Below, one piece after another: positions 11,289 through 56,840 of a DNA stretch of 64,000 bases; the stretch's first letter is position 1; each line of letters starts with the position of its first letter. The translations under genes were made by a program, and so were the position numbers. Location of the stretch: the NCBI GenBank assembly GCA_002070055.1, contig MWCM01000005.1, forward strand, positions 2,015 through 66,014, written 5' to 3'. The notes beneath the pieces are model-generated. The model saw only the letters and a list, made by a program, of their open reading frames with translations, had not been told where the DNA came from and searched no databases. This stretch comes from a bacterium ADurb.Bin212 (GTDB lineage Bacteria; Patescibacteriota; UBA1384; XYA2-FULL-43-10).

Positions 11289-11312
11289 CAACTTCTGCGC
11301 ACAGAACACGGA

Positions 11313-11352
11313 AGCCCCGCTCTACCTCGTAGAGTGGGGCTTCTTGCTTTTC
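11313..11352 (+). terminator. intrinsic terminator after the Lnt-like gene
   Basis: GCCCCGCTCTAC-CTC-GTAGAGTGGGGC hairpin followed by TTCTTGCTTTTC. Confidence 0.5.
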
Positions 11353-11392
11353 TATCTTGATTTTTTCGGTGATTGTGTTAATATGCGGTTAC

Positions 11393-11640
11393 TTGCAAGA
11401 GGTTTGAGGGCGGCGCTTCGGCGGCATCTCCAGCGGTAGCCTTGGCATCACAAAGGACATCCGCACGAGCTAAGTTTGCTCGGGAGGCCCAAGTAAACCG
11501 CAGCCATTCCTTTTGCAAGGAGGTCAGCCCGCCTTTCGGGTGAACCGGGGTAGAGAGCGTTGTAGCAATGTTGCTGTTACACCCCGCCAGCACTCATTGC
11601 TGCTCTCTACCCACCTTTTTTAAGTCAAGAGCTAGCGGCT
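11393..11640 (+). ncRNA. candidate structured RNA or leader (GC-rich, promoter-like start, tandem terminators at the 3' end)
   Basis: Promoter-like TTGATT-N16-TAATAT (11359-11386). About 250 nt of GC-rich sequence with long inverted repeats. Ends with a GGGTAGAGAGC...GCTCTCTACCC hairpin plus TTTTTT, and a second hairpin AGAGC-TAGCG-GCTCT plus T8. Class not identified. Confidence 0.3.
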
Positions 11641-11711
11641 CTTTTTTTTGTTTTAAAAATAGATTCCATGTTATGATTTGAATAATAGATCAATTAAATA
11701 GTGAGGTATAA

Positions 11712-12083
11712 ATGCCAGGCGAAACAATCGGACCCGTATTAGAAGCAGAAACAAACAACCCAGAGAAAGAAGAGCAGCCAATAGGTGCTGGACCATATTT
11801 TTTAGCAGGAAAACCAAAAAATGAAAGCTATTTAGGAGATAATACCATAATTACTCTAGCTGTATGGCACGGCACACCGGTTTTAGCTCCCAGCAGCCAA
11901 CTGGATCGTGGCCTAGAGCTAGATGTAACAGTTGCCACAGACGAAAAAGAAGAACTAAGAACCGAAAACGGTGGTTATGATATCGGTGGTATATATAAGC
12001 TGGAAGACGGAGAACTTATCACCAAAAGAGCATACGAAAATAAATACGGCACAACTAATAGAACCGAAGAAATAGCCGCTTAA
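11712..12083 (+). CDS. hypothetical protein (123 aa)
   Basis: ORF with RBS GTGAGGT before the ATG. Followed by a terminator. No motif. Confidence 0.4.
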   Translation: MPGETIGPVLEAETNNPEKEEQPIGAGPYFLAGKPKNESYLGDNTIITLAVWHGTPVLAPSSQLDRGLELDVTVATDEKEELRTENGGYDIGGIYKLEDGELITKRAYENKYGTTNRTEEIAA

Positions 12084-12119: not shown

Positions 12120-12159
12120 AATTATGTAATTACTTTTGTGATATTTGATATTTGATATT

Positions 12160-13404
12160 TTATTTTTCTATCGTTCCCCCGCCGATCACTTCGTCTCCAA
12201 TAAAAAACACAGCGCTCTGGCCGGGGGTGACGGCTCTCTGTGGTTCATCAAATATTACCTTAATCGTTCCTTGCTTAATTCTTAATCCTGAGTTCTTAAT
12301 CTTGCAACCCACACTTTTCGCCTGTGATCGGATTTTGACTGATAAGTTAGTAGCGGGTAGCGGGTAGTGAGTAGGGACATTGATCCAACTTAAATTAGAT
12401 ACAACCATCTCTTTCTTATAAATCTCGCTATCTTCCCCGACTATTAACCGGTTTTTTGACCGATCAAACCCAGCCACATACAAAGGTTTTTTATCATAAA
12501 GGGATTCCTCGGCTTCTCGCAAAACCTGCGAGTCGCTCGGAATGACAGTATTAACGTTCTTCAGTTCTTTGGTTTCTCGGTTCTTAAGTTGTTGGTTAAT
12601 TCCCCTCCTCTGTCCTATCGTATAATTAATCAACCCTTCATGCCTTCCCACAATATTACCTCCTGTATCAACAATATCTCCTGACTCAATACAGCTGTCT
12701 TTTACCTCATTCTTTAAAAATTCCCGATAATCCGTATTTTGCAAAAAACATATCTCTTGACTCTCTTTTTTTTCGGCAACTGGTAAATCCCATTTTTTCG
12801 CCAGCTCCCTCACCTCTTTTTTGGTTAATTCACCAAGAGGAAAGATTACTTTAGATAGTTGCTCTTGATTAAGCCGGTAAAGCATATAAGACTGGTCTTT
12901 GGAGTTATCGAATCCAGCAAGTAAATGATAAATTGTTGTATTGTTAAATTGTTTTTTATTCGAATAATTAGAATTTGGATATTTATTGGTTATTGCGCCT
13001 TGGTTATTGGTTGTTTCCGAATCTTTGATTCTGGCATAATGTCCTGTTGCCAACTTTGCACATCCAAGTTTCTCTGCCTCACCTATGAGTAGCTTAAATT
13101 TGATCTCCGGATTACAAATCGTGCATGGATTCGGAGTGCGCAAATTTTTGTATTCGGAAACAAAATACTCTACCACTACCCTTTTGAACTCTGCTTCTGC
13201 ATCAATCTCATAGAACGGGATCTTTAGAAACTCTGCCACCTTTCTAGATTCAAGCAGACCATCATCTACGCCATCATGCTTCCACATCTTTAAAAAGAGC
13301 CCGATTACATCGTAGCCCTCATCTTTTAATATTTTTGCTACTGCAGCACTATCTACGCCCCCGCTTAAGGCTACAGCGACTTTTATTTTGGAATTATGAA
13401 TCAT
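12160..13404 (-). CDS. mnmA: tRNA-specific 2-thiouridylase MnmA (with low-complexity insertion)
   Basis: PP-loop VAVALSGGVDSAAVAKIL near the N-terminus, and C-terminal domains typical of MnmA. The longer ORF extension to 13485 runs through mini-repeat sequence, so I prefer the ATG at 13404. Confidence 0.85.
   Translation of the reverse strand: MIHNSKIKVAVALSGGVDSAAVAKILKDEGYDVIGLFLKMWKHDGVDDGLLESRKVAEFLKIPFYEIDAEAEFKRVVVEYFVSEYKNLRTPNPCTICNPEIKFKLLIGEAEKLGCAKLATGHYARIKDSETTNNQGAITNKYPNSNYSNKKQFNNTTIYHLLAGFDNSKDQSYMLYRLNQEQLSKVIFPLGELTKKEVRELAKKWDLPVAEKKESQEICFLQNTDYREFLKNEVKDSCIESGDIVDTGGNIVGRHEGLINYTIGQRRGINQQLKNRETKELKNVNTVIPSDSQVLREAEESLYDKKPLYVAGFDRSKNRLIVGEDSEIYKKEMVVSNLSWINVPTHYPLPATNLSVKIRSQAKSVGCKIKNSGLRIKQGTIKVIFDEPQRAVTPGQSAVFFIGDEVIGGGTIEK
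12274..12305. repeat. TTCTTAATTC-type repeat in frame near the mnmA 3' end
   Basis: CTTAATTCTTAATCCTGAGTTCTTAATCTTGC. Peptide KIKNSGLRIKQG. Confidence 0.5.
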
Positions 13405-14828: not shown

Positions 14829-16163
14829 TTATTTGCCATATGGGCTCATTTGCCTTAATTTTTTTATGATGCCGGGAAGTATTTCTATTACACGATCGAT
14901 TTCCTCCTCCGTATTATGTTTCCCTAAACTAAAACGAATCGAGCCGTGGGACCACTCTGGTGATACGCCTATAGCTGTTAAAACATGGCTTGGTTCCAGC
15001 GATCCCGATGTACAAGCGCTCCCACTAGATGCCGCTATGCCCTCTTTATCAAGCATTAATAGAATTGATTCCCCTTCGGCATTCTTAAAACTTACATTAA
15101 CATTATTTGGGGATCTTCTTTTGAGGCAACCGTTGACTCTGGTATCAGGAATCTTCATTAAACCTTTAATTAATTTATCTCTGAGTTGCTTTAATCGTTT
15201 AGTTTCATCGTATAAAATCAATTCCGGCAAAAGTTTTCCAGATTCCTCGATTTTGCTATCAGCTTTGGCTTTATGCATCTTAACCAGTGCAGCACTCAAA
15301 CCGGCGATGCCGGCCACATTCTCTGTTCCGGCACGCATTTTATTCTCTTGGTTGCCACCGACTATCTGCCTGATTATTGGCGTGCCATTTTTAACGAACA
15401 GCGCGCCCACGCCTTTTGGTCCGTAAAATTTGTGAGCAGAGAAAGTAAGCAAATCAACACCCAAATATCTGACACCGGTTTGGAAATATTCCATTGCTTG
15501 CACCGCATCGGTGTGGAAATAAATTTGCTTTGCAAATTTATTTCCCGAATTATGAATAAAGAATGAAGAATTATGTTTATTCGGCTCAGTAACATTAGAC
15601 TTTTTCCCATTATTCATTATTCTTAATTCATTATTCTTCGCTATCATCTGTGCGATTTGCTTAATTGGTTGCACTGTGCCTATCTCGTTATTAACATACA
15701 TAATGCTCACCAAAACCGTGTTGTCTTTAATCTCCGCGTCTATATCCTCAACTCGTATCACACCGTTTTTCTGCGGAGTTACATAGCTAGCCTCTATCAG
15801 GCCCTGTTTCTCTAACTCCTTCACAGTATCCAAAACAGAGTGGTGTTCTACGGCACTTGTTATAACATGAGGCGTCGCTCTATTATTTTTCTGATCTGTG
15901 TTACTATGATATGCGTCAATCAAACCTTTTATAGCTAAGTTATTGCTTTCGGAGCCACCAGAGGTGAAAATAACCTCTTCGGGCTGGCAATTGAGACTAA
16001 AGGCTACAGTGTCCCTTGCTTCGTTTAAGATATTTCTAGCTCCCAAACCAAAGCTATGTGCAGATGATGCATTGCCCCAAAATTCCTTCTGAACCTTGTT
16101 CATAAGCAGAGCTACCTCCGGATCAGGAGGAGTTGTCGCCGAATGATCTAAATATATCTTCAT
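14829..16163 (-). CDS. iscS: cysteine desulfurase (group I IscS/NifS type) carrying an in-frame mini-repeat insertion
   Basis: IYLDHSATTP, PLP-lysine motif SAHKFYGPKGVGALFV, and active-site loop SSGSACTSGSLEPSHVL. Start taken at MKIYLDH (16163). Confidence 0.9.
   Translation of the reverse strand: MKIYLDHSATTPPDPEVALLMNKVQKEFWGNASSAHSFGLGARNILNEARDTVAFSLNCQPEEVIFTSGGSESNNLAIKGLIDAYHSNTDQKNNRATPHVITSAVEHHSVLDTVKELEKQGLIEASYVTPQKNGVIRVEDIDAEIKDNTVLVSIMYVNNEIGTVQPIKQIAQMIAKNNELRIMNNGKKSNVTEPNKHNSSFFIHNSGNKFAKQIYFHTDAVQAMEYFQTGVRYLGVDLLTFSAHKFYGPKGVGALFVKNGTPIIRQIVGGNQENKMRAGTENVAGIAGLSAALVKMHKAKADSKIEESGKLLPELILYDETKRLKQLRDKLIKGLMKIPDTRVNGCLKRRSPNNVNVSFKNAEGESILLMLDKEGIAASSGSACTSGSLEPSHVLTAIGVSPEWSHGSIRFSLGKHNTEEEIDRVIEILPGIIKKLRQMSPYGK
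15547..15575. repeat. inverted, diverged partner of family 1 repeat (GAATTATGAATAAAGAATGAAGAATTATG) inside the cysteine desulfurase gene
   Basis: Imperfect reverse-complement of the 15606-15637 copy, about 30 nt away. Together they form a ~90-nt MITE-like unit encoding SSFFIHNSGNK...NNELRIMNNG. Confidence 0.5.
15606..15637. repeat. AT-rich mini-repeat family 1 copy, in frame inside the cysteine desulfurase gene
   Basis: Identical core to 6892-6921. Encodes NNELRIMNNGKK. A partner in inverted orientation lies at 15547-15575. Confidence 0.7.
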
Positions 16164-19728: not shown

Positions 19729-20307
19729 TCAAATATATTTGATCATCTCAAAATCATCACAGGAGCACGGGTTACCACAAACTGTGCACTCAAAGTTATC
19801 AATGCCGACTTTTTTTGAATGTTCATACCAGGTTTTTTTATGAAGTTTAAGTGGTTCAAAGCCAAAACTTTCGAACAATTTCTGTGAGGCATTACCAGGA
19901 GAAGACTGCCAGCAGTGTACGCCAACTGCCTTAGCTCCGATGTTTTTTTGCTCGATCAATGACTTTTTTAATAGTTTTTTACCTATACCCATGCCTTGAT
20001 ATTTTTCATGAACTGCGATTAAAACCACGTAGCCATAGTTTTTCTTGTCGCAAATAATTTTGTCTAATGAAAAATATTTGTCTTCCATCTCCTCAAAAAT
20101 TCGTCCCGGATATCTTTGAACGATAACTCCTACAATATCAGGCCCTATTTTTGCAATAAGCATCTCACCAACCGAGAGTGATTTGAAGTAATCAATTCCC
20201 CAATCGCTATCACGCACAACTTGGCAATTTATTATATCATTAGCCTGAATAAAGTCATTCTCTGTAACAGGTAAAGATATCCTAATTTTTGAATTTCTAT
20301 CTGCCAT
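19729..20307 (-). CDS. GNAT-family N-acetyltransferase with Cys-rich C-terminus
   Basis: Acetyl-CoA binding motif QGMGIGKKLLKK. C-terminal CTVCGNPCSC. Confidence 0.8.
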   Translation of the reverse strand: MADRNSKIRISLPVTENDFIQANDIINCQVVRDSDWGIDYFKSLSVGEMLIAKIGPDIVGVIVQRYPGRIFEEMEDKYFSLDKIICDKKNYGYVVLIAVHEKYQGMGIGKKLLKKSLIEQKNIGAKAVGVHCWQSSPGNASQKLFESFGFEPLKLHKKTWYEHSKKVGIDNFECTVCGNPCSCDDFEMIKYI

Positions 20308-20308
20308 T

Positions 20309-21031
20309 TTAATTTTTAATTTTTGATCTTTTAATTATTAATACGAATTCACCTTTTAGTTTATGATCATTTAGATCTTCAGCTACTTCTTTGATTGTGC
20401 CGCCCCAATACTCCTCGAACATTTTTGTCATCTCGCGAGCGATAAAGACCTGTGTTTCTGCTCCAAAATATTCTTTTATGTCGTCTAAAGTTTTTTCTAT
20501 CCTGAAAGCCGACTCGTAAATAACAATAGGTACATCAACAACTGAAAGATGTTTTAACTGTGTTTGGCGCCCTTTCTTCTTGGGCAAGAAACCAGCAAAA
20601 TAGAACTCTTTATCGACCAATCCACTCACAGATATTGCCGAAGTTACAGCTGAAGCTCCCGGTATTGGAATAATTTTGATATTTTCATTGTCATTTTGAT
20701 TTTTGATATTTACATTTTGAATTAATTTTTGTCCCGGATCCGATATTCCAGGCGTTCCGTTGTCGGTAACATATGCGACACTCCTGCCAGCCAAGAGTTC
20801 AGCTATGACTTCATCAATTGACTTCTCAAGCGAATGTTGATGAATCGCTTTCAGCGGTTTTTTTATTTCGAGCTTATGAAGTAATAGCCCTGAAACCCGT
20901 GTATCTTCACACACCACTAAATCGACGCTCTTTAAAATTTCGATTGCGCGCAAAGTAATATCCCCCATATTACCAATGGGAGTGGCTACAATATATAAGT
21001 TCCCAATTGTTTCATTGTTAAATTGTTTCAT
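20309..21031 (-). CDS. rsmI: 16S rRNA (cytidine1402-2'-O)-methyltransferase RsmI (tetrapyrrole-methylase fold)
   Basis: GNLYIVATPIGNMGDITLRAIEILKSVDLVVCEDTR, the canonical RsmI N-terminus. Confidence 0.85.
   Translation of the reverse strand: MKQFNNETIGNLYIVATPIGNMGDITLRAIEILKSVDLVVCEDTRVSGLLLHKLEIKKPLKAIHQHSLEKSIDEVIAELLAGRSVAYVTDNGTPGISDPGQKLIQNVNIKNQNDNENIKIIPIPGASAVTSAISVSGLVDKEFYFAGFLPKKKGRQTQLKHLSVVDVPIVIYESAFRIEKTLDDIKEYFGAETQVFIAREMTKMFEEYWGGTIKEVAEDLNDHKLKGEFVLIIKRSKIKN
20671..20731. repeat. TTTTGAT-type tract in frame inside rsmI
   Basis: Encodes NIKNQNDNENIKII. Similar tracts at 23295-23329 (rsmA), 12137-12167 (downstream of mnmA) and 20307-20336. Confidence 0.55.
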
Positions 21032-23082: not shown

Positions 23083-24042
23083 TTAATACTGGCTATTCTC
23101 TATTTCTCTTGCTAACATAACCCATTGCTCGATTGTAAGCTCCTGAGCCCTAGCGTTTCTACCTATATTCATCTTATCTAATAGTTCTATGGTCTGTCCA
23201 CTACTTAAATTGGTGCCAGCCTTTAAGTTATTAAATAAGGTCTTTCTCCTCGCCCTAAACCCAGCTTTCACTATTTTAAAAAAGTTTTTTTCATCAATTT
23301 TTGATTTTTGATATTTAATATTTGATATCTTTATGATCGCACTATCAACTGTTGGCACAGGAAAAAAAGAATCGCGTTTTACGATATCAACAATCTCCGG
23401 ATCACCATAATATTGCACCGAAACACCTAGCAGCGATAAATCGCCGTTCTTAGCACATACCCGCTCCGCCACCTCTTTTTGCACCAAAAGAACGATAAGC
23501 ACTGGCTTATTGTCGGCAGTTAGAAATTTCTCAAGAATTTTCGAGGTAATATAGTAAGGAATGTTGGCTACTAGCTTGTAGGGAACAGGTTCTAGGTTTA
23601 AGGTTTCAGATTCTAGTGATTCCTGCATCAAATCTGTCCCTTTTCCTTTGTCATCCCGAGCGACTCGCAGATTTTGTGAGGAGTCGAGGGATCCCTTTAT
23701 TATTGATTCAGGATCAAATTCTAAGGCATCTTCGCAAATTATTTCCGCGTCTATACTTAATTCTGAATTCTTAATTCTTAATTCTAGTAAATTTGCCAGC
23801 TTCTCATCCTTCTCAATCGCCACTACCCTTCCGGCTTTTATAACCAGCTCCTCTGTTAACGCCCCAACCCCTGGGCCGATCTCCAATACCAGATCTGACA
23901 GCTTAAGATCAGCAGCTGTTACAATTTTATCGAGCACCCCTCGGTCAACTAAAAAATTCTGGCCCAAGCTTTTTTTAGCCCAGAGCCCATTTTGTTTTAA
24001 ATAACTTATTAGTTCGTTCTTATTGGTTAAATCCATAGTCAT
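23083..24042 (-). CDS. rsmA: 16S rRNA (adenine1518/1519-N6)-dimethyltransferase RsmA/KsgA (with ~60-aa insertion)
   Basis: LGQNFLVDRGVLDKIV, SAM motif VLEIGPGVGALTEEL, and LVANIPYYITS. Start taken at MTMDL (24042). The longer ORF runs into GC-rich non-coding sequence. Confidence 0.9.
   Translation of the reverse strand: MTMDLTNKNELISYLKQNGLWAKKSLGQNFLVDRGVLDKIVTAADLKLSDLVLEIGPGVGALTEELVIKAGRVVAIEKDEKLANLLELRIKNSELSIDAEIICEDALEFDPESIIKGSLDSSQNLRVARDDKGKGTDLMQESLESETLNLEPVPYKLVANIPYYITSKILEKFLTADNKPVLIVLLVQKEVAERVCAKNGDLSLLGVSVQYYGDPEIVDIVKRDSFFPVPTVDSAIIKISNIKYQKSKIDEKNFFKIVKAGFRARRKTLFNNLKAGTNLSSGQTIELLDKMNIGRNARAQELTIEQWVMLAREIENSQY
23295..23329. repeat. TTTTGAT-type tract in frame inside rsmA
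   Basis: CAATTTTTGATTTTTGATATTTAATATTTGATATC. Encodes ISNIKYQKSKID. Confidence 0.55.
23756..23787. repeat. TTCTTAATTC-type repeat (CTTAATTCTGAATTCTTAATTCTTAATTCTAG) in frame inside rsmA
   Basis: Encodes LELRIKNSELSI on the minus strand. Related copies at 12274-12305 (mnmA, KIKNSGLRIKQG) and 9673-9703 (upstream of recG). Confidence 0.55.
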
Positions 24043-45993: not shown

Positions 45994-46025
45994 AGCGCCC
46001 CCTATGCGTTGGGGGCGCTTTTGTT
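45994..46025 (+). terminator. intrinsic terminator after the sortase gene
   Basis: AGCGCCCCC-TATGCGTT-GGGGGCGCT hairpin followed by TTTGTT. Confidence 0.55.
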
Positions 46026-46319
46026 CTTTGGGATATCATCCCCTTTCTTCGGCCGCTTGCACCACGGCCAGTGATACTGCCCGCAATACGGGCAGGGTTG
46101 CTTGCGCCGGTTGGGGTAACCTACCGGACGCGGGGGCACTACGGGTCCAACGGGCCCGATCGGCATAGTATCCAACCCCTTTCATTTTCAACGGTTCTGA
46201 ATTGGCAACTTTTTATAACATTTTTTGACGATATTCGCAACATTTTTTGCTTTACAAATTTTGCAAAAAGTTATAGTATTACTTATCGTCGCAACATCGA
46301 CTCCAAGCGAGGTAAAGCC

Positions 46320-47036
46320 ATGCCCGAATTGACTATCGCCACATTCCTGACACTGCCGTTCACGATGGGCACAAGAGTGGCTATCTCCCAAGGGTGGCTA
46401 TACTCCATGGACGAGGTAGTCATTCACCCTGGCATTACCCACCACAACGGGGTGGACTTCGCCTGCCCATGGGGTACACGCGTACTGGTGCCGGCCGACG
46501 GTGTGGCAGTAGCCAGCTACCACACCTACTACATGGGTGATTTCCATGGTCGTCTGATCGGCTATGGGCTAGGGTTGTTTGTGCAGATCTGGCACCCCGA
46601 GGCCCAACTCTTCACCTCTTACGCACACCTATCCAAGGCGTCTAAGGAGATTCCCTACATCTCACCGGTCCGCCAGGGCGACAGTTGGCAACCGGCGGCA
46701 GCCATCTATGTGCCGCTGGAGGTGTTTCTGGCGCAAGGTGTTGAGGTGAAACGGGGTGACTATCTTGGCGAAGTTGGCCGCACAGGCCTACTGCTCCACG
46801 ACGAGACACCCAGCAACCCCCCAGCAACCAAGGCGACCGACCCCACTTGGGATCCTGCAGGTGATCACTTGCACTGGGAGTGCTACAGACGCACACTCGA
46901 CGGCCTCCGCAAGGACCCTGAGGCGCGCTGCGACCCCTTCGGTGTCTATGGCCTCCGCGAGGCCTACAACATCAACAAAGCTAGCGGTCTGTTGCTGGCC
47001 GGCCCCAAGGGCAGACCCCTATGGGCCAACGAGTGA
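46320..47036 (+). CDS. M23-family (LytM-like) metallopeptidase (high-GC island)
   Basis: HPGITHHNGVDFACPWGTRVLVPADGVAVASY (HxxxD ... GT.V.A...G.V) and GDHLHWE (HxH). RBS GAGGT before the ATG at 46320. The longer upstream ORF extension is non-coding GC-rich sequence. Confidence 0.7.
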   Translation: MPELTIATFLTLPFTMGTRVAISQGWLYSMDEVVIHPGITHHNGVDFACPWGTRVLVPADGVAVASYHTYYMGDFHGRLIGYGLGLFVQIWHPEAQLFTSYAHLSKASKEIPYISPVRQGDSWQPAAAIYVPLEVFLAQGVEVKRGDYLGEVGRTGLLLHDETPSNPPATKATDPTWDPAGDHLHWECYRRTLDGLRKDPEARCDPFGVYGLREAYNINKASGLLLAGPKGRPLWANE

Positions 47037-48836: not shown

Positions 48837-50693
48837 GTGGCTGAGTTGTTTGAGTTTCTTGCAGTTGCGCTGTCGTACATATGGGGGTCGCTCCCCTTTG
48901 GGTACACGGTGGGGAAGCTCGCCGTAGGGAAGGGCTTCGACATCAGAAACCATGGCTCCGAAAGCATCGGTTTCACCAATGTCTGGCGAGTACTGGGCAT
49001 GAAGGTAGCAATACCAGTGCTCATCCTCGACCTGCTCAAGGGATACCTGCCTGTGGCGATCGCCATGCACACGCTTGGTGTTACAGCCGCCTGGCTCTGT
49101 CTGATCGCGGTAATGATCGGGCATGCCAAGTCGCTCTACTTCCGACTCACCGAAGGTCATTTCAGCGGCGGTAAGTCGGCGGCTTCTGCGATGGGTGGCA
49201 TCGTTGCTCTTCAACCAGTGCTCGCCGGATGGGTGTTCCTGTTCTTCCTGGCAGTACTGCTTGTGAGCAGAACAATGTCGGTATCTTCGATGCTTGCGAG
49301 TTTCTGTGCAGTCTGGCTATCCTACCACTACGAACTGGGACACGGATGGCACACTCTGTTCTGGGTTGTTGCAGTGCTGATTATGTACACGCACCGCCGC
49401 AACCTAGGGCGCTTGGCTCATGGCACCGAGAACAAGATGTTCGAGTGGTCGGACATGCGGTGGCCATGGCAGAAAAAGCCAACGACTAAAGAGCAACCCG
49501 AGATCCTGGCAGGGTTCGTGATTCACGCCATGGACTGGAGAGATCTCCTGCAATCCATCTTCTCATGGTGGATAGGCTTTCTCGGGATGTGGGAACGCAC
49601 GAGACCCATCGCAACGTGGATATTGGCTCACGTACCGGTCATCGAGAACGCCGAGATCAGAAACATCCGACTCAAAGATGGCCGAAGGGTTAGAGTCCTG
49701 GTGTTGGCGATTCCTTGGGTGTCCAGCATGATCAAGCAGGTCCGGTATGCCAACGAGATTGACGAAAGAGAGGAAAAGATCCCGTCGGGATCGGAAGGAG
49801 CCGAAGCCAGAGATGAGGTGAAGAGAGCCAAACAAGCTCCGGAGTATAGGAGGTCGAAGTGGTTCCGTGATAGGCTCTGGCAAAGGCTTCGAAGCACAGC
49901 GGTGCAGACCAGACGTAGGGGTTGTTCGGTGTTAGGTCTTGGCGCTCTACTTTCGACCGAGTTCAACGGAGGTGCAGACCTACAGAAGTGGTGCAACGCG
50001 AGAGGCCTTGACCTGACCGTAGACAACGGAGCGGCCTACACAGCCGTTTCCACGGTACAGGCGGTGATTAAAGAGACACCCATGCCCCTCGACCAAGCTA
50101 AGGTCAAGGTAGTAGGTGCCAGCGGCTTCATCGGTCGCATTACCGCCAAGTACATGGAGAAACTAGCCGCTCAAGTGACCGTAATAGGCAGGGACGAGGC
50201 CAAGTTAACCGGGTTCAGTCAATCCACGGCAATCTCAACCGCGCTGGAAGACGCTTACGACGGCGACGTTGTAGTGCTTCTTACCAGCGCGCCCGGACAG
50301 GTGGTGAACCTCGAGAACTGCACCAAGTTCAAGCCTGGCGCTACCTTCATGGACGGCGCTAGGCCTGTTGACTTCGACGAGCAAATACTCAAAGAACACC
50401 CCGAACTCAACTTCAAGCTGGTGCGCTGTGGGGTCATCAAGTTTCCACAAGAAGAAGGCAGAGACGTTCTGTGTGGTGTGGATTTCCACTTCGATGGCTA
50501 CTACCCAGCTTGCGTCGCCCAGTGTGTAATGGTGGCGGCCGGAGGAGAAGAGGGAAGATCGAACGCCACCAACGGAGCGTCAATCAGGCCAGCCAAGTAT
50601 GAGTACTTCGCAAATAGTGCCGAGGCATGTGGCTTGGAGGTCATAACCTCGCGAAGATCGGAGGGAGATGTATTCGAGGGCAATTACAACTAG
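48837..50693 (+). CDS. plsY: glycerol-3-phosphate acyltransferase PlsY fused to a ~400-aa C-terminal extension with Rossmann-like NAD(P)-binding motif (high-GC island)
   Basis: N-terminal ~200 aa: LSYIWGSLPFGYTVGKLAVGKGFDIRNHGSESIGFTNVWRVLG, 5 TM helices, typical PlsY. The same frame continues without a stop for 618 aa and includes VKVVGASGFIGRITAKYM...VTVIGRD. GTG start. Visibly GC-rich. Confidence 0.6.
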   Translation: MAELFEFLAVALSYIWGSLPFGYTVGKLAVGKGFDIRNHGSESIGFTNVWRVLGMKVAIPVLILDLLKGYLPVAIAMHTLGVTAAWLCLIAVMIGHAKSLYFRLTEGHFSGGKSAASAMGGIVALQPVLAGWVFLFFLAVLLVSRTMSVSSMLASFCAVWLSYHYELGHGWHTLFWVVAVLIMYTHRRNLGRLAHGTENKMFEWSDMRWPWQKKPTTKEQPEILAGFVIHAMDWRDLLQSIFSWWIGFLGMWERTRPIATWILAHVPVIENAEIRNIRLKDGRRVRVLVLAIPWVSSMIKQVRYANEIDEREEKIPSGSEGAEARDEVKRAKQAPEYRRSKWFRDRLWQRLRSTAVQTRRRGCSVLGLGALLSTEFNGGADLQKWCNARGLDLTVDNGAAYTAVSTVQAVIKETPMPLDQAKVKVVGASGFIGRITAKYMEKLAAQVTVIGRDEAKLTGFSQSTAISTALEDAYDGDVVVLLTSAPGQVVNLENCTKFKPGATFMDGARPVDFDEQILKEHPELNFKLVRCGVIKFPQEEGRDVLCGVDFHFDGYYPACVAQCVMVAAGGEEGRSNATNGASIRPAKYEYFANSAEACGLEVITSRRSEGDVFEGNYN

Positions 50694-50725
50694 GCTGCGG
50701 CAGCAAGTTGCAGTCGACGAATCGC

Positions 50726-50768
50726 GCACCCCCTTTCCCACGCGGAGAGGGGGTGCTCGCATTTTTAC
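50726..50768 (+). terminator. intrinsic terminator after the PlsY-fusion gene
   Basis: GCACCCCCT...AGGGGGTGC stem followed by TCGCATTTTT. Confidence 0.5.
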
Positions 50769-50797
50769 TTAATTATCTTTTCTGCTAGTATATATTT

Positions 50798-51841
50798 ATG
50801 AAAAAAATAGCAATTATGGGTGCAGGTGGATTCGGTACGGCCTTGGCTTTTGTTCTATCCCGTAACAGTCAAAGTGTAAGCCTTTGGGATCAAGACGAAG
50901 CATTAATAGCCAAATGGAGAAAGCAAAATTTTAGCGACAGATACCCATATCTCAAAAAACATAAGTTTAATAAGAACATTAAATTGATCTCAGGTAGTGT
51001 GAACGCTGACGACCACGACTATGTAATTGTTTCAACCTCAACCAGCGGTATCACTGGCGCACTAAATAGTCTAAATACCAACGGCAAAACTCCGATAGTT
51101 TTGATCCAAAAGGGTATGCTGGATGGACTGATCTCCCCTCACGATTTAGCAAAAAAGATTTTCCCAAAAGAGACCATTATGCAATTCACCGGGGCCGGTT
51201 TTGCCAAGGATTTGGTGGGCAGATCTCCAGCAGGAATGATTGTGTTGCATGAAACTAAAGATACATCCACCGCCAGTGATTTCGCCTCCGTGTTTAAGGG
51301 TAGCAACATCTGGCCTACACTCTGTTCGGATCTCTTTGGGGTCAACATCCATAACTCTCTTCGCACCATTGCTTCTTTTGAACAAGGCTTTGTATATGGA
51401 TATTTTGAACACAAGTTTCGCAAAAAACCTCCTGTTTCTACAATCGCGATTACCTTTTCTGCTATCAACCAAGAAACTAAATTAATTGCCAGAAATCTTG
51501 GAGCGACAAAAGAAATTCACGATATAGAATCGAAAGTCCACAGAATTTTAGAAGCCGATTTAATGCTTTGCCAGTCCGACTCCAGCCGAAACTTCGCTTT
51601 AGGTCATTTTGTAGGCAAAGGCTATTGTTTAGATGAAGCAAAGAAAAAGGTAACAGAGGGAGTGGCAGAGTGCCTAAACAATATCAGCTCGATATTCGCC
51701 GCCATTAGCGAAAAGGTAATTAAGGACACAATTGAGGACAGTTTCCCATATTTACTGGCTGCAAAAAATTTAACAGAAAAAGGAGAGATAGAAAGCCAGA
51801 TGAAAAGAATATTGTCCCACCACGAAAACTATATAGCTTAG
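50798..51841 (+). CDS. gpsA: NAD(P)H-dependent glycerol-3-phosphate dehydrogenase GpsA
   Basis: KIAIMGAGGFGTALAFVL N-terminal dinucleotide-binding/GpsA signature. Low-GC. Canonical position downstream of plsY. Confidence 0.85.
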   Translation: MKKIAIMGAGGFGTALAFVLSRNSQSVSLWDQDEALIAKWRKQNFSDRYPYLKKHKFNKNIKLISGSVNADDHDYVIVSTSTSGITGALNSLNTNGKTPIVLIQKGMLDGLISPHDLAKKIFPKETIMQFTGAGFAKDLVGRSPAGMIVLHETKDTSTASDFASVFKGSNIWPTLCSDLFGVNIHNSLRTIASFEQGFVYGYFEHKFRKKPPVSTIAITFSAINQETKLIARNLGATKEIHDIESKVHRILEADLMLCQSDSSRNFALGHFVGKGYCLDEAKKKVTEGVAECLNNISSIFAAISEKVIKDTIEDSFPYLLAAKNLTEKGEIESQMKRILSHHENYIA

Positions 51842-51875: not shown

Positions 51876-51904
51876 TTGACTTAAATTGTATTTTGTGCTA
51901 TAAT
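51876..51904 (+). promoter_or_regulatory. near-consensus sigma70 promoter TTGACT-N17-TATAAT upstream of the muramidase-amidase gene
   Basis: TTGACT 51876-51881, a 17-nt spacer, TATAAT 51899-51904. AAGGAGG RBS at 51985-51991, 8 nt before the ATG at 52000. Confidence 0.5.
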
Positions 51905-51999
51905 TGCTTAATTCTCTAAAGCAGAGATATATTTTTTGTTGCATAAAAATACTCCCTGCTTCAGCAGGACAAGCATCACAATCGAAGGAGGCGAGGCGC

Positions 52000-54009
52000 A
52001 TGAAAGCGCTCTCCTACGCCGTATTTGTTGTTCGGTTGTTGTGGTACATGGTGTGGGGAGGGGCTTACGCCATATCCTCCTTCATCATTGTGCCATTCTT
52101 CATCGCGCTGGCACGGCTACTAGTTGCCGTGCTAAAGCAGTGCTGGGGCAACCTGGCCTGCTTCTACAAGAGGTGGGTCAAGAGGAGTGGCCTGGGCCGT
52201 GTGCTTCTTTGGCACGGTGCCGCCTTCGTCGTAATCATGGTTGTCGTCGGCTCATGGGGAGACGCACCGCGCACGCCCCAAGCCGGAAGCAACCAGGCAA
52301 AGGAGCAGGTGGCACCCGCTACCACTCCCGAGCCCATGGACAAAAAGCCCGAGGAGAAGCCTGCGCCTGCAGAGGTAAAGGATACTTCTCCGAAGGGGGC
52401 GCTAGGCAAGGGCGCATGGATCATCGAGCTGGACGAGGCCGAACTTGGCCAAGTCAAACAGATCAAAGATCCGGAGGCTCGCCAGAGTGCGCAGGTAAAG
52501 GCGGTTGTGGCTAAGGCCAAGAAAAACGGCCTGGGGCATATCATCGTCAAGACTGCCCACTTCGGTAAGCCGTATGGCAGCTGCCCGCCCGAGATGGCGC
52601 GTGAACTTGGCGAAGCCTGCCGCAAGGCTGGCATCCGCTGCTTCGGCTACGGCCGAATTCTAGCGGACGATGCTGATGCCGAAGCGGAGATGGCCAAGCG
52701 AGCCATGCGCCCTGCCAGAGATGGCGGGCTCGGGCTCGATGGCTACGTCTTTGACGCCGAAGGAGAGGTTAAGGGCAAAGATAAGAATCTGCGCCTAATC
52801 CTCGCTGATGTCAAAAGCTGGCTTAAGGCTGCGGCGCCTAATAAGCGCCTTGGCTACTCCAGCTTCGGCATCCCCTCCTACCACAGAGGACTCGCTTGGG
52901 ACACACTCAACGAGTTCTGTCACTACGCCATGCCTCAGTTGTATTGGCGCAGTTGGCAGAGTACTCAGAAGTGGTCCTTGGATGAGTCCCTTGGCAAGTC
53001 GCTCGCCTCTTGGCGCGACTGCCCTCTGCCGGTGGTGCCCACCGTGCAGAGCTACTCAGGAAAGCTTGGCGGCGTAGCCCGTGTCGAACCAGCCAAGATG
53101 AAGAAGTTCCTGGCCGGCCTCGACACAAGCTCCGGCTTCAACTCCTTCCGCTGGGACTATACGGGCCCAGAGCAGTGGCAGGTAATCCGCGACTTTAAGT
53201 GCGGGCAACCTAGTTACAAGCTCAAAGTTCCGGCGGAAGGCAAGCAGACTAGTGCCGCCTCGACCACCATGCCCAAGATGCCGCTTGAGCCAACTGGCAA
53301 AGGCGACCTCACCGGCATGGTTGTGGTCATCGACCCCGGCCACGGTGGCACCGACCCCGGCATGGGTTGGAAGGTGGAATGGAAGAAGAGCGGCAAGGCC
53401 CACAAACTCAAAGCGTGGGAAGCCGCCGTCACCTACCCCACCTCCTGGCAACTGGCCGCCACCCTACGATCCCGAGGTGCTTACGTCTACCTCACCGCCT
53501 GGGACCCGATCATGGCCCAGGTGCCGACGGGCGCTCGGGATCTACCGTTGCCGAGGAAAGCAACCTTCACGGACGACTGCAAGAAAGTCCGCGGAGGCAT
53601 GTTTTCGCAGCGCTTTGCCACAGTTTCGACTGCGGTTAAGCGCTTCGACGCCTCCGGAAAGAAACTGGGCTGGCGCCATGTTGCCTTCGTCAGCATCCAT
53701 GTGGACTCGCTCGGTGGAAATGTGAGCGGTGCCCACGCTGTTTGCTGGCCGGGAGATGTTGACCTTGGCGAACCGATCGCAGCTGAACTTGCAAAGATCG
53801 GCGTTGCCACACCCGGCAGACCACTCTGGGAGAAGACGAAGAGGATGGGCATCATTGCCCCAAGTAACGTTCCCCTTCGTCTCCGACTGGTGGTCGAGAT
53901 GGGAGTCCCGGCCAACGATGGCGGTGACTCATGGCGACTGCGATCACAAAAGCATCGACAGAAAATCATCGATGCCATCGCCAACGGCCTCGCCGCCGTT
54001 AACGACTAG
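52000..54009 (+). CDS. membrane-anchored bifunctional peptidoglycan hydrolase: GH25-like muramidase domain plus C-terminal N-acetylmuramoyl-L-alanine amidase (Amidase_3) (high-GC island)
   Basis: N-terminal TM/signal anchor, then a Pro/Ala/Lys linker. GH25-like blocks LGHIIVKTAHFGKPYG, GIRCFGYG, LDGYVFDAEGE and MPQLYWRSWQ, compared with the GH25 pattern FVIIKATEG...G.YHF...LWLD.E...PLWIA.Y. Amidase_3 signature MVVVIDPGHGGTDPGM. Confidence 0.6.
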   Translation: MKALSYAVFVVRLLWYMVWGGAYAISSFIIVPFFIALARLLVAVLKQCWGNLACFYKRWVKRSGLGRVLLWHGAAFVVIMVVVGSWGDAPRTPQAGSNQAKEQVAPATTPEPMDKKPEEKPAPAEVKDTSPKGALGKGAWIIELDEAELGQVKQIKDPEARQSAQVKAVVAKAKKNGLGHIIVKTAHFGKPYGSCPPEMARELGEACRKAGIRCFGYGRILADDADAEAEMAKRAMRPARDGGLGLDGYVFDAEGEVKGKDKNLRLILADVKSWLKAAAPNKRLGYSSFGIPSYHRGLAWDTLNEFCHYAMPQLYWRSWQSTQKWSLDESLGKSLASWRDCPLPVVPTVQSYSGKLGGVARVEPAKMKKFLAGLDTSSGFNSFRWDYTGPEQWQVIRDFKCGQPSYKLKVPAEGKQTSAASTTMPKMPLEPTGKGDLTGMVVVIDPGHGGTDPGMGWKVEWKKSGKAHKLKAWEAAVTYPTSWQLAATLRSRGAYVYLTAWDPIMAQVPTGARDLPLPRKATFTDDCKKVRGGMFSQRFATVSTAVKRFDASGKKLGWRHVAFVSIHVDSLGGNVSGAHAVCWPGDVDLGEPIAAELAKIGVATPGRPLWEKTKRMGIIAPSNVPLRLRLVVEMGVPANDGGDSWRLRSQKHRQKIIDAIANGLAAVND

Positions 54010-54112
54010 GCCGATTCCGCGGAGCCTAGCAACAAAAATCCGCGTTTTCAGAGCCGCCCTCGCAAGGGGCGGCTCTTAGTATTTAAAACCAGACAGAACA
54101 ACAAGAAAAATG

Positions 54113-54141
54113 TTGACAAACACACTCTCTTCTGTTAGTAT
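54113..54141 (+). promoter_or_regulatory. sigma70-like promoter (TTGACA-N17-TAGTAT) for the rpsF-ssb-rpsR operon
   Basis: Exact -35 TTGACA. The -10 TAGTAT matches 4 of 6 positions. Preceded by the hairpin AGAGCCGCCC-TCGCAAG-GGGCGGCTCT, which terminates the upstream gene. Confidence 0.4.
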
Positions 54142-54470
54142 AACTATGCTTATCGGCAGCAGATAAGGCGCCGTGAACTATCACACGGAGGGAAACTGGG
54201 AGGTTTCTCGGTAGTTCACGGCGTTTGCCCGACCCCTCAGCCCATATTGCATAATACTTATTGCATTTTGCTGTGTTCGATCTTCAATACTCAATGTTCG
54301 AGATTCGAAAATTGCTATTGGAAATTGAAATTCCCCCGCTTCTTTAGCTGGGGGAACTCGCGGCCGACCTAAATTGGCCAACATTATGCGAGTGCCAAAT
54401 TATAAAACGTATTAATTTACCACTGAAAATCATTTAACGGAATACATGGAAATTCTGTGTTTTCTGTGAA
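54142..54470 (+). promoter_or_regulatory. long structured 5' leader of rpsF (candidate S6:S18 autoregulatory element)
   Basis: Hairpins CTTATC-GGCAGCA-GATAAG, GCCGTGAACTA...TAGTTCACGGC (about 60 nt with internal GGAGGGAAACTGGGAGG), CCCCCGC...GCTGGGGG, and ACTCGC-GGCC...GGCC-GCGAGT. A ~360-nt untranslated region is unusual in this compact genome. Confidence 0.35.
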
Positions 54471-54506
54471 GATAATTATGTGGAAGAAAATAACATAGGA
54501 GTTTTT

Positions 54507-55286
54507 ATGCGACAGTATGAAATGACTTATCTCTTATCAGACAAAGTCAATGATAACGAGATTACCGCCACTACTGGCAAAATTAACGGAATTATTACCG
54601 GACGCAAGGGCAGAATATTAGGAGAGGAAAACTGGGGCCGTCGCAAATTGGCCTATCCGATTGTAAAACAGGATTTTGCAACCTATATTACCCTAAACTT
54701 TGAACTCGAACCGGACCAATTGGCAAAGATTATTCGCGATCTAAAGTTAACCAAAGAGGTTATTCGCCATTTAATTGTGGTTAAAGATTACGGCAAAGAG
54801 GAGCTTAAGCTCTCTGTAGATGAGATTGCTGAAACAGAGGAAATAGAGGAAGTTGTTGGTGGAGAGAAAAGTTTTGAAGCGATTGAAGGGGAAACAGAGC
54901 AAAGCTATGATCTTATGGCTAAGAGGGAGGAGACCTCCGAAGAATCTGAAGGTGATGCAGATACGGCCGACAAAGAAATTGAAGCAGAGAAAAAACCGGA
55001 AACAGAAGAGAAAGTAACAGAAGCAGAAGCAAAACCAGAATCAGAAACCATAAAAGAGGAAGAAAAAGTAGAGGTTGAGGAAGCGGAAGCATCAAAACCA
55101 AAGAAAAGAACTGTCAAAAAAGAGAAAAGTCTTGAAGCTGAAGTTGAGAAGGAAGATAAAAAAATAGCCAAAAAAACCATTAAGGCCGAAGCAGTAGATG
55201 ACAAAAAACAAAAAGCTGAGGCTGAGGCTGATCGTTTGGCAAAATTAGACGAAGAGATTGAGGGCATTTTAGGAGACGATCTCTAA
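54507..55286 (+). CDS. rpsF: 30S ribosomal protein S6 with long acidic/Lys-Glu-rich C-terminal extension
   Basis: MRQYEMTYLLSDKV...GRKGRILGEENWGRRKLAYPI, the S6 core. GGAG RBS. An ~150-aa EK-rich tail. Confidence 0.9.
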   Translation: MRQYEMTYLLSDKVNDNEITATTGKINGIITGRKGRILGEENWGRRKLAYPIVKQDFATYITLNFELEPDQLAKIIRDLKLTKEVIRHLIVVKDYGKEELKLSVDEIAETEEIEEVVGGEKSFEAIEGETEQSYDLMAKREETSEESEGDADTADKEIEAEKKPETEEKVTEAEAKPESETIKEEEKVEVEEAEASKPKKRTVKKEKSLEAEVEKEDKKIAKKTIKAEAVDDKKQKAEAEADRLAKLDEEIEGILGDDL

Positions 55287-55404
55287 TCAATTAGAGATCG
55301 CATCGGGTTTTGAAATTTTATGGTATTTCTATCCGGCCAGGCAGGCAGAACTTACCAAGACGCAAGCATTATGGTAAAGTTGAGGTAATTAACTAAGGAG
55401 TCCA

Positions 55405-55890
55405 ATGTTAAATCTAAATCGTGCACAGATATTAGGCAACCTGACCAGAGACCCCGAGATGAGGTTTACGCCAAATGGTCAAGCAGTATCAAACTTTGCA
55501 GTAGCCACCAACAGAAGATGGAAAAATCAAGACGGTAGCGCTGGAGAAGCAACAGAGTATCATGATGTTGTAGTGTGGGGCAAACAGGCAGAAAGCGTAT
55601 CGCCAATGCTCAAAAAAGGTCAGCCTGTTTTCATTGAAGGACGTTTACAAACAAGAAGCTGGGAAGGTCAAGACGGCGCCAAAAGATATAAAACAGAAAT
55701 AGTAGCCGAGAGTGTTATTGTATTGGGTAGCAAAGGCATGTCCGGATCAGACAATTATGCATATGAAAATGAGACAAACCCTGTAGAAAGCATCAGTAAA
55801 TCATCAAGCAACAAAGCAGATACCAAGGGAGATATTGCGCAAAATGCCAACGCAGACGACGAAATAGACATTGAAGAGATTCCATTCTAA
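55405..55890 (+). CDS. ssb: single-stranded DNA-binding protein
   Basis: MLNLNRAQILGNLTRDPEMRFTPNGQAVSNFAVATNRRWKNQDG OB-fold. Acidic C-terminus ending DIEEIPF. Confidence 0.9.
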   Translation: MLNLNRAQILGNLTRDPEMRFTPNGQAVSNFAVATNRRWKNQDGSAGEATEYHDVVVWGKQAESVSPMLKKGQPVFIEGRLQTRSWEGQDGAKRYKTEIVAESVIVLGSKGMSGSDNYAYENETNPVESISKSSSNKADTKGDIAQNANADDEIDIEEIPF

Positions 55891-55929: not shown

Positions 55930-56172
55930 ATGAAAAGAGAATTCAGAAAATCACAGAACGAGCCTAAGTTCAACAAAAAATGTTACTTTTGCGTCAACAA
56001 AATTAAAGATGTTGACTATAAAGACGTGCCAACACTTAGCAAATATTTGAACCGTTGGTCAAAAATTGAATCGAAAGACAGAAACGGCAACTGTGCCAAG
56101 CACCAAAGATGGCTGACAACAGCCATCAAGAGAGCAAGATTTTTAGCTCTTTTACCATACATAAGCAGATAA
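55930..56172 (+). CDS. rpsR: 30S ribosomal protein S18
   Basis: [60 protein letters not shown], the S18 signature. Confidence 0.9.
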
Positions 56173-56282: not shown

Positions 56283-56840
56283 ATGTTAGCAATCACCGAT
56301 TTAAAAAACGGCACTAAGTTTATCTATGAAGGAGACCCCTTTGTAGTTTTGAGTTACTCTCAAAGTAAAATGGGGCGTGGTGGTAGTGTGGTCAAGGTCA
56401 GAATTAAAAATCTTAAAAATGGCAACGTTTTAACAAAAACTTTCCAAGGTGCCGACAAATTTGAATCTGCTGATCTTGCAAGGCGCAAAGCTAATTTTCT
56501 TTACAGCGACGAAAAAGAAGCTAATTTTATGGATTTAGAAAATTTTGATCAATTCTCGATTCCTATTTCGCAAATTGGCGATCAAAATATCTACCTCAAA
56601 GAGGGCACAGACATCGATATATTACTGTTTAATAACACCCCTATAAACATCGAACTACCAATTAAAATGAAATTTATGGTTGTAGATGCTCCTCCTGCCA
56701 TAAAAGGCAATAGTGCCGGAGCAGTCACCAAAAAAGCAAGAATTGAAGGCGGTGGGGAGATCGACGTTCCAATCTTTATCAAGCAAGGTGATATAATTGT
56801 TGTAGACACTCGGGACGGGAGCTACGTAGAAAGAGGTTAG
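56283..56840 (+). CDS. efp: translation elongation factor P
   Basis: ITDLKNGTKFIYEGDPFVVLSYSQSKMGRGGSVVKVRIKNLKNG, the EF-P KOW-like N-domain. Start taken at MLAITDL. Confidence 0.9.
   Translation: MLAITDLKNGTKFIYEGDPFVVLSYSQSKMGRGGSVVKVRIKNLKNGNVLTKTFQGADKFESADLARRKANFLYSDEKEANFMDLENFDQFSIPISQIGDQNIYLKEGTDIDILLFNNTPINIELPIKMKFMVVDAPPAIKGNSAGAVTKKARIEGGGEIDVPIFIKQGDIIVVDTRDGSYVERG

Follow-up and report, generated by a model that had tools for sequence, protein, structure and literature searches.

Ribosomal protein leaders are a textbook case of RNA mimicry coupled to feedback, and to our knowledge almost nothing has been reported about them in the Candidate Phyla Radiation, with its reduced ribosomes and genomes. 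The rpsF-ssb-rpsR operon in the 64,000-nt stretch of contig MWCM01000005.1 (bacterium ADurb.Bin212) analyzed here, called the window below, raises the question of what fills the long gap in front of rpsF and whether it carries an RNA through which ribosomal proteins S6 and S18 regulate their own operon. The gap measures 497 nt and is among the longest in the window, where most other long gaps contain a small gene or a transfer RNA (tRNA); a crude gene map based on open reading frames (ORFs) gives a median intergenic gap of 76 nt, in keeping with the statement of a first, sequence-only reading of this DNA that gaps are typically under 100 nt. That reading saw in the gap a candidate S6:S18 autoregulatory RNA. 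We lean slightly toward the overall interpretation that, in this Saccharibacteria-like member of the Patescibacteria, positions 54113-54506 hold the promoter and the 5' untranslated leader (~360 nt) of rpsF-ssb-rpsR, and that S6:S18 regulate the operon through one part of that leader, module C. Of the structural and comparative parts we are confident: the leader appears as a mosaic of two conserved RNA modules, A and C, and fast-evolving AT-rich spacers, and comparison of related loci shows a conserved promoter and two conserved predicted plus-strand RNA folds that always accompany rpsF.

In the published S6:S18 motif, S6S18CBM, a hairpin is combined with a bulged loop containing CCR, which lies 2-3 nt 5' of a Shine-Dalgarno sequence held in the basal stem (Matelska et al., 2013, PMC3854524; Fu et al., 2014, PMC3895269). 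It occurs specifically in the 5' untranslated regions (UTRs) of rpsF and is thought to mimic the 16S ribosomal RNA (rRNA) junction around C719/C720, and mutation of the CC abolishes S6:S18 binding (PMC3854524; PMC3895269). Negative feedback of S6:S18 on their own messenger RNA (mRNA) is reported for E. coli and B. subtilis (PMC3895269; PMC4647458).

Results

Module C is shared with the rpsF leaders of related genomes

About 100 loci were compared with the window: L004-L008 from the genome collection, L010-L089 from metagenomes, and L090-L103 from look-ups anchored on EF-P. In the last set many contigs, from several assemblies, end in or just before rpsF, so that five look-ups gave no leader, and in L103 the gene call splits rpsF into ORFs of 104 and 114 aa. 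The nearest relatives in the genome collection carry the labels uncultured Candidatus Saccharibacteria or Patescibacteria. The gene order rpsF-ssb-rpsR is identical across all related loci, and leader elements recur 5' of rpsF in nine other loci with differing upstream genes. Two blocks of the leader, modules A and C, are conserved across loci, and the AT-rich sequence between them is unalignable. MAFFT did not align correctly those copies that have an apical insertion (L004, L094), nor leaders of differing junction length; alignments were started from small well-aligned seeds, and the remainder was aligned by Infernal.

The last 70-120 nt before rpsF have a common layout in 14-16 patescibacterial loci whose S6 proteins are 45-57% identical to that of the window. 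From 5' to 3' it consists of AACUUUU(U), the hairpin Ha, a hairpin Hb that encloses YCGAWCUMA...GGR and in some loci has a variable third arm, GCC(A/G), GAAAGGA and, after about 6 nt, the start codon. In these relatives the 5' CUUUU(U) pairs with GAAAGG, and the predicted basal helix P1 therefore contains the Shine-Dalgarno sequence, with an unpaired CCR 0-3 nt 5' of it. These leaders show every sequence-level feature of S6S18CBM. A covariance model, R1, was built from the outgroup loci L012, L015 and L016 only (one U was trimmed from L016) and searched against 416 kb, comprising the window and 89 loci. It gave a single match in the window, in front of rpsF and over the full length of the model (positions 1-78), with 38.4 bits and an E value of 2.5e-7. 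R1 also matched L004, L005, L006, L090, L091, L094, L099 and ten outgroup loci, in each case on the plus strand just 5' of rpsF, and with filters off it ranked the sites found by eye in L021, L011, L017 and L013 first. The comparison shows module C, as delimited by this match, to be homologous to the rpsF leaders of related genomes.

The predicted helices of module C are also reflected in the pattern of substitutions. Across 19 sequences 94% of cells were paired, against 38-55% when partners were slid by 1-3 columns, both sides had changed in 18 of the 24 pairs, and none of 500 shuffles reached the observed values. Compensatory changes back all four helices (P1, Ha, Hb and the inner hairpin Hi) on the model-fitted alignment; because that alignment leans to the structure and contains a few misaligned rows, the counts should be read as upper estimates. 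The outer stem of Hb varies within the window's clade as CUCGC/GCGAG, CCCAA/UUGGG and GCUUG/CAAGC, and Ha occurs as CCCCCGC/GCUGGGGG versus CCUUCGCC/GGCGAAGG. GCC or ACC stands at the junction in all copies that are properly aligned or were checked by eye; in the window an unpaired GCCA follows Hb and precedes the 3' strand of P1.

Module C has left the Shine-Dalgarno sequence in the window's clade

Alignment of the leaders shows that module C is detached from the predicted ribosome-binding site in the clade of the window. The distance from its end to the start codon is 3 nt in L099, 100 nt in L094, 101 nt in both the window and L091, 119 nt in L090, 139 nt in L004, 205 nt in L005 and 228 nt in L006, and in L102 the start codon lies ~25 nt after GCC. 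A CCR 2-3 nt from a Shine-Dalgarno sequence in the basal stem is found in L010-L024, L049 and L099 and is missing in the window. P1 covaries as the Shine-Dalgarno sequence drops out of it, from CUUUUU/GAAAGG to AUAACU/GGUUAU (L102), UAUUUU/AAAAUA (L094), AAAUU/AAUUU (L006) and AAUU/AAUU (window). The CC and the Hi loop are retained in seven of seven displaced copies. The modules are intact and carry compensatory changes while the spacers are unalignable, which argues for continuing selection on structure; on this comparative evidence the predicted fold of module C and its CCR are under selection independently of Shine-Dalgarno occlusion. A long-range pairing between the Ha/Hb joint (GGAACUC) and the Shine-Dalgarno region was considered and dropped, since L090 and L091 do not conserve it.

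The spacer between module C and the ribosome-binding site, spacer D, is itself a mosaic. The window, L091 (519-618) and L094 (274-372) share one version (...CACUGAA...AUUCUGUGUUUUCUGUG...), and L090 (1535-1652) and L005 (2797-3000) share another, though L090 is by EF-P the genome closest to the window (97% identical), which points to recombination or repeated replacement. AT-rich intergenic quasi-repeats occur elsewhere in the window (CCATTATTCATTATTCTTAATTCATTATTCT, two identical 31-mers at 6892-6922 and 15607-15637, and TTTTGATTTTTGATATTTGAT), and further AT-rich quasi-repeat spacers lie at 7989-8036, 9437-9485, 12136-12166, 20307-20337 and 23285-23326; spacers B and D are similar to them in flavour, suggesting a genome-wide process that inserts or expands such sequence.

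A simpler S6S18CBM-like element was seen in another lineage, whose S6 is 46% identical (L025, 2400-2500; L026, 1380-1476; L027, 2290-2500). It reads AACUUC, hairpin, ...ACCAAAG, GAAGUU, carries a fossil Shine-Dalgarno-like strand, and lies 70-150 nt 5' of the real Shine-Dalgarno sequence, from which it is separated in L027 by a tandem TATAGAT repeat.

Promoter, extent and folding of the leader

TTGACA and the -10 box stand exactly 6 nt 5' of GCUUAUC in the window, L004, L006, L090, L091, L099 and L102, and because this spacing holds in every copy the putative transcription start is placed at G54148, one nucleotide before helix P0 of module A. With the rpsF start codon at 54507, the leader therefore spans ~54148-54506. 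Upstream, the terminator of the preceding gene is the 5' limit of the rpsF transcription unit; it recurs in L090 (~1185-1212) and L004 (2318-2345), and in the latter its hairpin is almost identical despite a different upstream gene. In a plus-strand scan of 53800-55500 this was the sole terminator-like site, with none inside the leader, which speaks against a transcription attenuator. A coding leader was rejected as well, since ORFs of 41 aa (plus strand) and 67 aa (minus strand) are confined to the closest relatives and broken or absent elsewhere.

The minimum free energy (MFE) of the whole leader is -116.7 kcal/mol, while dinucleotide shuffles give -87.1 +/- 5.6 (z = -5.3), and none of 100 shuffles folds as well. 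Folded separately, module A scores z = -4.1 on the plus and -1.2 on the minus strand, and module C scores -4.4. The sequence-only reading was thus right about an unusually long, structured leader behind a promoter; of its limits, 54113-54470, the start coincides with the promoter and the end has to be moved to 54506, and where it counted four stable hairpins the prediction gives at least five. The ~60-nt stem-loop that it singled out is present, with GCCGUGAACUA (54170-54180) paired to UAGUUCACGGC (54212-54222) and GGAGGGAAACUGGGAGG at 54187-54203 inside it, and belongs to module A.

Module A is a narrow-clade, putatively 5'-terminal domain

A second covariance model, R2, made from the window, L090, L091 and L006, was run against 436 kb. 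It found exactly one plus-strand copy in each of eight species-level loci, namely the window, L004, L005, L006, L090, L091, L094 and L099, always 5' of rpsF, and a diverged copy in L102/L103 (27 bits); nothing else appeared in the 436 kb except reverse-strand echoes of the same hairpins. Module A is without counterpart in the 14-16 relatives that carry the rpsF leader motif, matched no Rfam family in permissive scans, and had no exact-pattern match in viral contigs. By these comparisons it is a narrow-clade domain, and with a single copy in the window, one per related locus and no viral match, a dispersed repeat, mobile or phage element was rejected.

In the alignment of module A the share of paired cells is 97%, and in slid controls it is 38-45%. 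The upper five pairs of its P1 show compensatory changes among seven copies, and the lower part is invariant in sequence in seven of eight copies. In L102 the whole of P1 is rewritten with complementarity kept (CGUUGUCGAUUUU/AAAAUCGACAACG), and judged by this covariation P1 is a true helix. The apex carries insertions of 35-60 nt in L004 and L094. All copies conserve the 5' GCUUAUCGG, a G.UAA.G segment, the tail GCCC(R), and, where the apical loop ends on its 3' side, a run rich in purines that resembles a Shine-Dalgarno sequence (GGAG, GAGG or AAGG). A leader peptide after GGAGGU was considered and rejected, AUG following only in L094, and two 16S-like strings, GAAUUCC (as in L004) and CUGGGAGG...CGG, are not conserved among copies and were taken as chance.

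The complement of the 5' GCUUAUC, GAUAAG(C), is always present and in the window's clade is adjacent, forming P0. In L102 the complement of GCUUAUC (1413-1419) is a perfect GAUAAGC 120 nt downstream (1537-1543), and the MFE fold uses it. Pairing of the 5' end thus appears, in the predicted folds, to be conserved while the topology changes; in each of the eight leaders the prediction has nucleotides 2-3, counted from the start site deduced from the -10 spacing, mostly paired. An alternative closing helix, Pc (GGCAG with UUGCC in the window), is the MFE solution for the isolated domain and is in steric competition with P0; by inspection it covaries as GGUAG/CUAUC (L004), GGAGA/UCU(G)CC (L102) and GGCGA/UC(A)GCC (L099).

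In L099 module A is followed by a 70-nt spacer and by a module C that abuts the Shine-Dalgarno sequence, an arrangement from which it follows that A and C form one leader in one 5' UTR and that A was added upstream of an already functional C. At the position of module A, between promoter and module C, L024 has an unrelated GC-rich hairpin (2330-2384, CCCGCCUGCAUCAGCUGUCGCUUCAGCGACUGCGGACAGGC), which suggests that structured add-ons have been gained repeatedly at the 5' end of the leader.

Features of the rpsF leader and its surroundings (positions in the window)
Feature	Position (nt)	Strand	Basis or remark
Amidase_3 gene, GC-rich, upstream neighbour	51904-54009		Pfam domain
Intrinsic terminator of the Amidase_3 gene, GAGCCGCCCUCGCAAGGGGCGGCUC	54050-54076	+	11-bp stem, 8 G-C pairs, T-rich tail (terminator scan)
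Promoter, sigma-70-type, -35 box TTGACA	54113-54118	+	promoter scan, 10/12 matches over both boxes; 17-nt spacer
Promoter, TG-extended -10 box TAGTAT	54136-54141	+	promoter scan
Module A	54148-54233	+	fold z score, R2 match, covariation; contains the ~60-nt stem-loop
Module A, invariant 5' GCUUAUCGG	54148-54156	+	
Module A, P0 hairpin	54149-54154 with 54162-54167	+	
Module A, alternative closing helix Pc	54155-54159 with 54225-54229	+	
Module A, P1	54169-54182 with 54210-54223	+	14-15 bp
Module A, 5' internal loop ACACGGA	54183-54189	+	7 nt
Module A, P2	54190-54196 with 54203-54209	+	apical helix, 7-8 bp
Module A, apical loop UGGGAG	54197-54202	+	
Module A, tail GCCCGA	54227-54232	+	
Spacer B, AT-rich	54234-54328	+	predicted A/U hairpin; alignable in L090, L091, L005; not in L004, L006, L094, L099, L102
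Module C, junction of P1, Ha, Hb/Hi	54329-54406	+	R1 match, covariation, fold z score
Module C, P1 (weak)	54329-54332 with 54398-54401	+	
Module C, Ha	54332-54340 with 54346-54355	+	
Module C, Hb outer stem	54356-54361 with 54388-54393	+	
Module C, inner hairpin Hi, loop CCUAAA	54362-54367 with 54374-54379	+	
Module C, unpaired junction GCCA	54394-54397	+	CCR is CCA 54395-54397
Spacer D, AT-rich, hypervariable	54407-54496	+	between module C and ribosome-binding site
Shine-Dalgarno AGGAG	54497-54501	+	sequence
rpsF start codon ATG	54507-54509	+	sequence
rpsF	54507-55286	+	259 aa, public gene call at same start; Pfam Ribosomal_S6, E 2e-22, residues 3-91
ssb	55405-55890	+	Pfam SSB
rpsR	55930-56172	+	Pfam Ribosomal_S18
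efp	56283-56840		

Surroundings of the operon

The S6 encoded here carries a Glu/Lys-rich C-terminal tail of ~165 aa. In an Rfam scan of the whole window at gathering threshold the single match was a tRNA with a long variable arm (5380-5461, minus strand, 59 bits), and the window holds no 16S gene. GC content is 51-62% at 10001-12000, 46001-47000, 49001-51000 and 52001-54000, against ~36-46% in the rest of the genome; the Amidase_3 gene upstream of the leader is one of these segments, L090 has the same neighbour, and the segments could be of foreign origin or result from a compositional bias that is strong in some genes for the surface or cell wall. Two 55-nt inverted repeats, 87% complementary and 11 kb apart (12493-12547 and 23649-23703), have a GC-rich palindrome in each arm and could represent either a small dispersed element or a terminator that is repeated.

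Discussion

In this study, the leader of an rpsF-ssb-rpsR operon is resolved into a module C that has homologs in front of rpsF in many patescibacterial loci and a module A confined to the clade of the window. The sequence-only reading was correct as to the class, in that the leader carries a candidate S6:S18 element, module C, which is matched by the outgroup model and whose relatives have the CCR and Shine-Dalgarno hallmarks. It was mistaken in taking the ~60-nt stem-loop for that element, the homolog of the rpsF leaders being the hairpins at 54332-54393 with the GCCA that follows. It had tied its proposal to a match with the Rfam rpsF-leader model and to hairpins conserved, with covariation, in related genomes; the Rfam match failed to appear, yet the hairpins are conserved, both sides have changed in most pairs of module C, and the upper P1 of module A shows compensatory changes.

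By analogy with the known leaders, S6 and S18 in excess over 16S rRNA would bind as a heterodimer to the CCR junction of their own mRNA and lower its expression. In the relatives the 3' strand of P1 is the Shine-Dalgarno sequence, so binding would lock the ribosome-binding site. In the window and its closest relatives the junction has been shifted by an AT-rich insertion to 100-230 nt 5' of the Shine-Dalgarno sequence, and P1 is now made of A/U pairs that leave that sequence out. Since the junction is displaced and yet under selection, any repression would have to act at a distance or be attenuated; the routes that could be envisaged at a distance are mRNA decay, elongation through the leader, or long-range folding. 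Module A, whose invariant first nucleotides are always predicted to pair with the GAUAAG partner, most likely acts as a stabiliser that sequesters the 5' end of the mRNA, and it may also present another surface to which a protein can bind. What we infer from the comparison is that S6:S18 bind, in which direction and by what mechanism they regulate, and what module A does.

Several observations weigh against this interpretation. The feature underlying the accepted mechanism is absent from the window, where the CCR lies 100 nt 5' of AGGAG; the P1 of the window consists of four A-U pairs only (AAUU/AAUU), and its Shine-Dalgarno sequence is about half open, with a mean predicted unpaired probability of 0.53. 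A promoter-like site within spacer D (54447-54476), weak (9 of 12) and not conserved, lies downstream of module C. The alignment behind the covariation of module C was fitted to the model, with some rows misaligned in the variable arm, and module C has the extra hairpin Ha, two hairpins inside the basal stem where S6S18CBM has one. The Rfam model RF02893 (RpsF_leader, gathering score 37 bits) had no match in the leader of the window at the gathering threshold or at E <= 10, all other Rfam families were silent at E <= 10 on the leaders of the window and the outgroup except for chance small nucleolar RNA and microRNA matches, and R1 had no match in the E. coli leader. Protein binding is a prediction, we infer both the continuity of the transcript through the leader and its start site, and what we say of the role of module A is guesswork.

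The silence of RF02893 extends to L004-L008 at E <= 1 and to the outgroup leaders and L091 at E <= 10. In the positive control the E. coli leader scored 115 bits with every position at consensus; with a fit of this kind the model is probably narrow and tied to enterobacteria, so its silence counts as weak evidence.

A bolder reading, which we hold to be doubtful, is that module A represents a kind of structured RNA domain not described before, which would serve as receptor for the 30S subunit or a protein and was acquired at the 5' end of the rpsF mRNA by the Saccharibacteria-like family; that the S6:S18 junction was detached from the ribosome-binding site in the same lineage; and that feedback would proceed without Shine-Dalgarno occlusion, for example by control of mRNA decay or by long-range refolding between A and C. 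The idea of a receptor arises because the conserved Shine-Dalgarno-like purine tract is predicted to be exposed in the apical loop. If this were true, the detachment in the second lineage, L025-L027, would make action at a distance general for a patescibacterial ribosomal protein leader.

Three rival explanations are disfavoured by specific observations. That the leader is an evolutionary relic, its feedback lost after the AT-rich insertion, rpsF expressed from an accessible ribosome-binding site and possibly a proximal promoter, and the structures further upstream without a regulatory role today, is unlikely. It would account for a Shine-Dalgarno sequence that is distant from the CCR and half open, for a spacer D so variable that it is swapped even between near-identical genomes, for the promoter-like site in that spacer, and for the similar displacement in L025-L027. 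However, a relic would hardly keep modules A and C intact between unalignable spacers, with compensatory helix changes between clade members that speak for continuing selection on structure and with the CC and the Hi loop kept in every displaced copy, and the proximal promoter-like site is both weak and not conserved.

We regard it as very unlikely that the mimic bound by S6:S18, or a second site for the heterodimer, is the long hairpin at 54169-54223 in module A, with the conserved helix and the unpaired GCCCR tail as the features recognized. Every copy of module A ends in a helix followed by GCCC(G/A) (window UUUGCCCGA, L099 CAGCCCAA, L102 CUGCCCCUAA), which echoes the helix-then-GCC(R) order of module C, and the module always travels with rpsF and has its invariant lower P1 in seven of eight copies. 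That lower P1 is wholly replaced in L102, so it is not a fixed recognition sequence; moreover, the module is absent from the 14-16 relatives having the rpsF leader motif, it matches no Rfam family, its tail is without a 3' stem and without a Shine-Dalgarno sequence, and similarities of single copies to 16S h22/h23 are not common to the other copies.

Quite improbable too is that module A stands apart from any regulatory fold of the mRNA, either as a small RNA gene of its own or as an operator in the DNA in which CTTATC-N7-GATAAG at +2 to +20 is a palindromic repressor site: a strong promoter does stand directly upstream, the CTTATC/GATAAG arms are invariant in seven copies around a variable center, as in a DNA palindrome recognized by a protein, and module C works without A in most relatives, but no locus has a terminator between A and C (none lies in 54148-54506, and none is conserved after A in relatives), A and the rpsF-proximal C are 70 nt apart in L099, the distant GAUAAGC partner of L102 keeps the RNA pairing and loses the DNA palindrome, and the covariation of P1 and of the candidate Pc involves G-U pairs, which are possible only in plus-strand RNA.

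With module C as the candidate S6:S18 element, several consequences follow. Module C provides a testable patescibacterial version of a widespread leader that current Rfam models miss, and module A a new conserved 5' domain. A single clade offers a natural series in which the junction lies on the Shine-Dalgarno sequence (L099), next to it (L102), or 100-230 nt away (window). If the displaced junction still regulates, occlusion is incomplete as an account of the mechanism; if it no longer does, the series shows an autoregulatory circuit decaying while the RNA fold persists. Covariance models such as R1 and R2 would improve the annotation of patescibacterial genomes.

Comparison with known systems

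Some bacterial mRNAs begin with 5'-terminal stabiliser stem-loops, as in the E. coli ompA and the B. subtilis aprE and ermC leaders, where paired first nucleotides protect the mRNA from 5'-end-dependent RNases. Module A starts at the putative +1 with its first nucleotides predicted to be paired in every copy; however, its size and its degree of sequence conservation go well beyond what a hairpin that only protects would require. For this previously undescribed domain our best guess is a role in 5'-end sequestration or as a protein platform.

Among rpsF leaders, the S6:S18 leader of Chlorobi, one of several lineage-specific ribosomal leaders and likewise found by comparative genomics, is a phylum-restricted replacement or variant of a ribosomal protein leader 5' of rpsF-ssb-rpsR (Eckert and Weinberg, 2020, PMC7247131). 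It belongs to a different phylum, and at E <= 10 there is no match to any Rfam family, the families added from that work among them. The rpsF 5' UTR of alpha-proteobacteria, ~200 nt in Sinorhizobium meliloti, is likewise unusually long and off the standard structure (as cited in PMC3854524). It reportedly is without S6S18CBM, whereas the leader studied here has a CCR junction and a second module.

The closest parallel is S6S18CBM itself (Matelska et al., 2013, PMC3854524; Fu et al., 2014, PMC3895269; Rfam RF02893). Module C shares with it the location in the 5' UTR before rpsF, with the S18 gene in the same operon, the basal stem around a hairpin of variable length, and the unpaired 3' junction with a conserved CC(A/G), and in the relatives the CCR stands 0-3 nt before the Shine-Dalgarno sequence that forms the 3' strand of the basal stem. 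In the relatives the sequence near the CCR resembles that of E. coli (CCGUAAGGAGC versus CCGUGAAAGGAGC), and around the CCR the E. coli leader, ...UCCGUAAGGAGCAAUUCGAUG, resembles L019, ...GCCGUGAAAGGAGCAAUUUUG; CC(G) is shared with the 16S rRNA junction of helices 22, 23a and 23b. The differences lie in the second hairpin inside the basal stem, in the conserved inner hairpin (YCGAWCUMA loop region) and variable third arm of Hb, and, in the window, in a junction 100 nt from the Shine-Dalgarno sequence with a P1 that does not contain it. With no covariance-model link between the two we withhold formal membership, and we regard module C as an element that would work like S6S18CBM, having probably either descended from it or converged on it.

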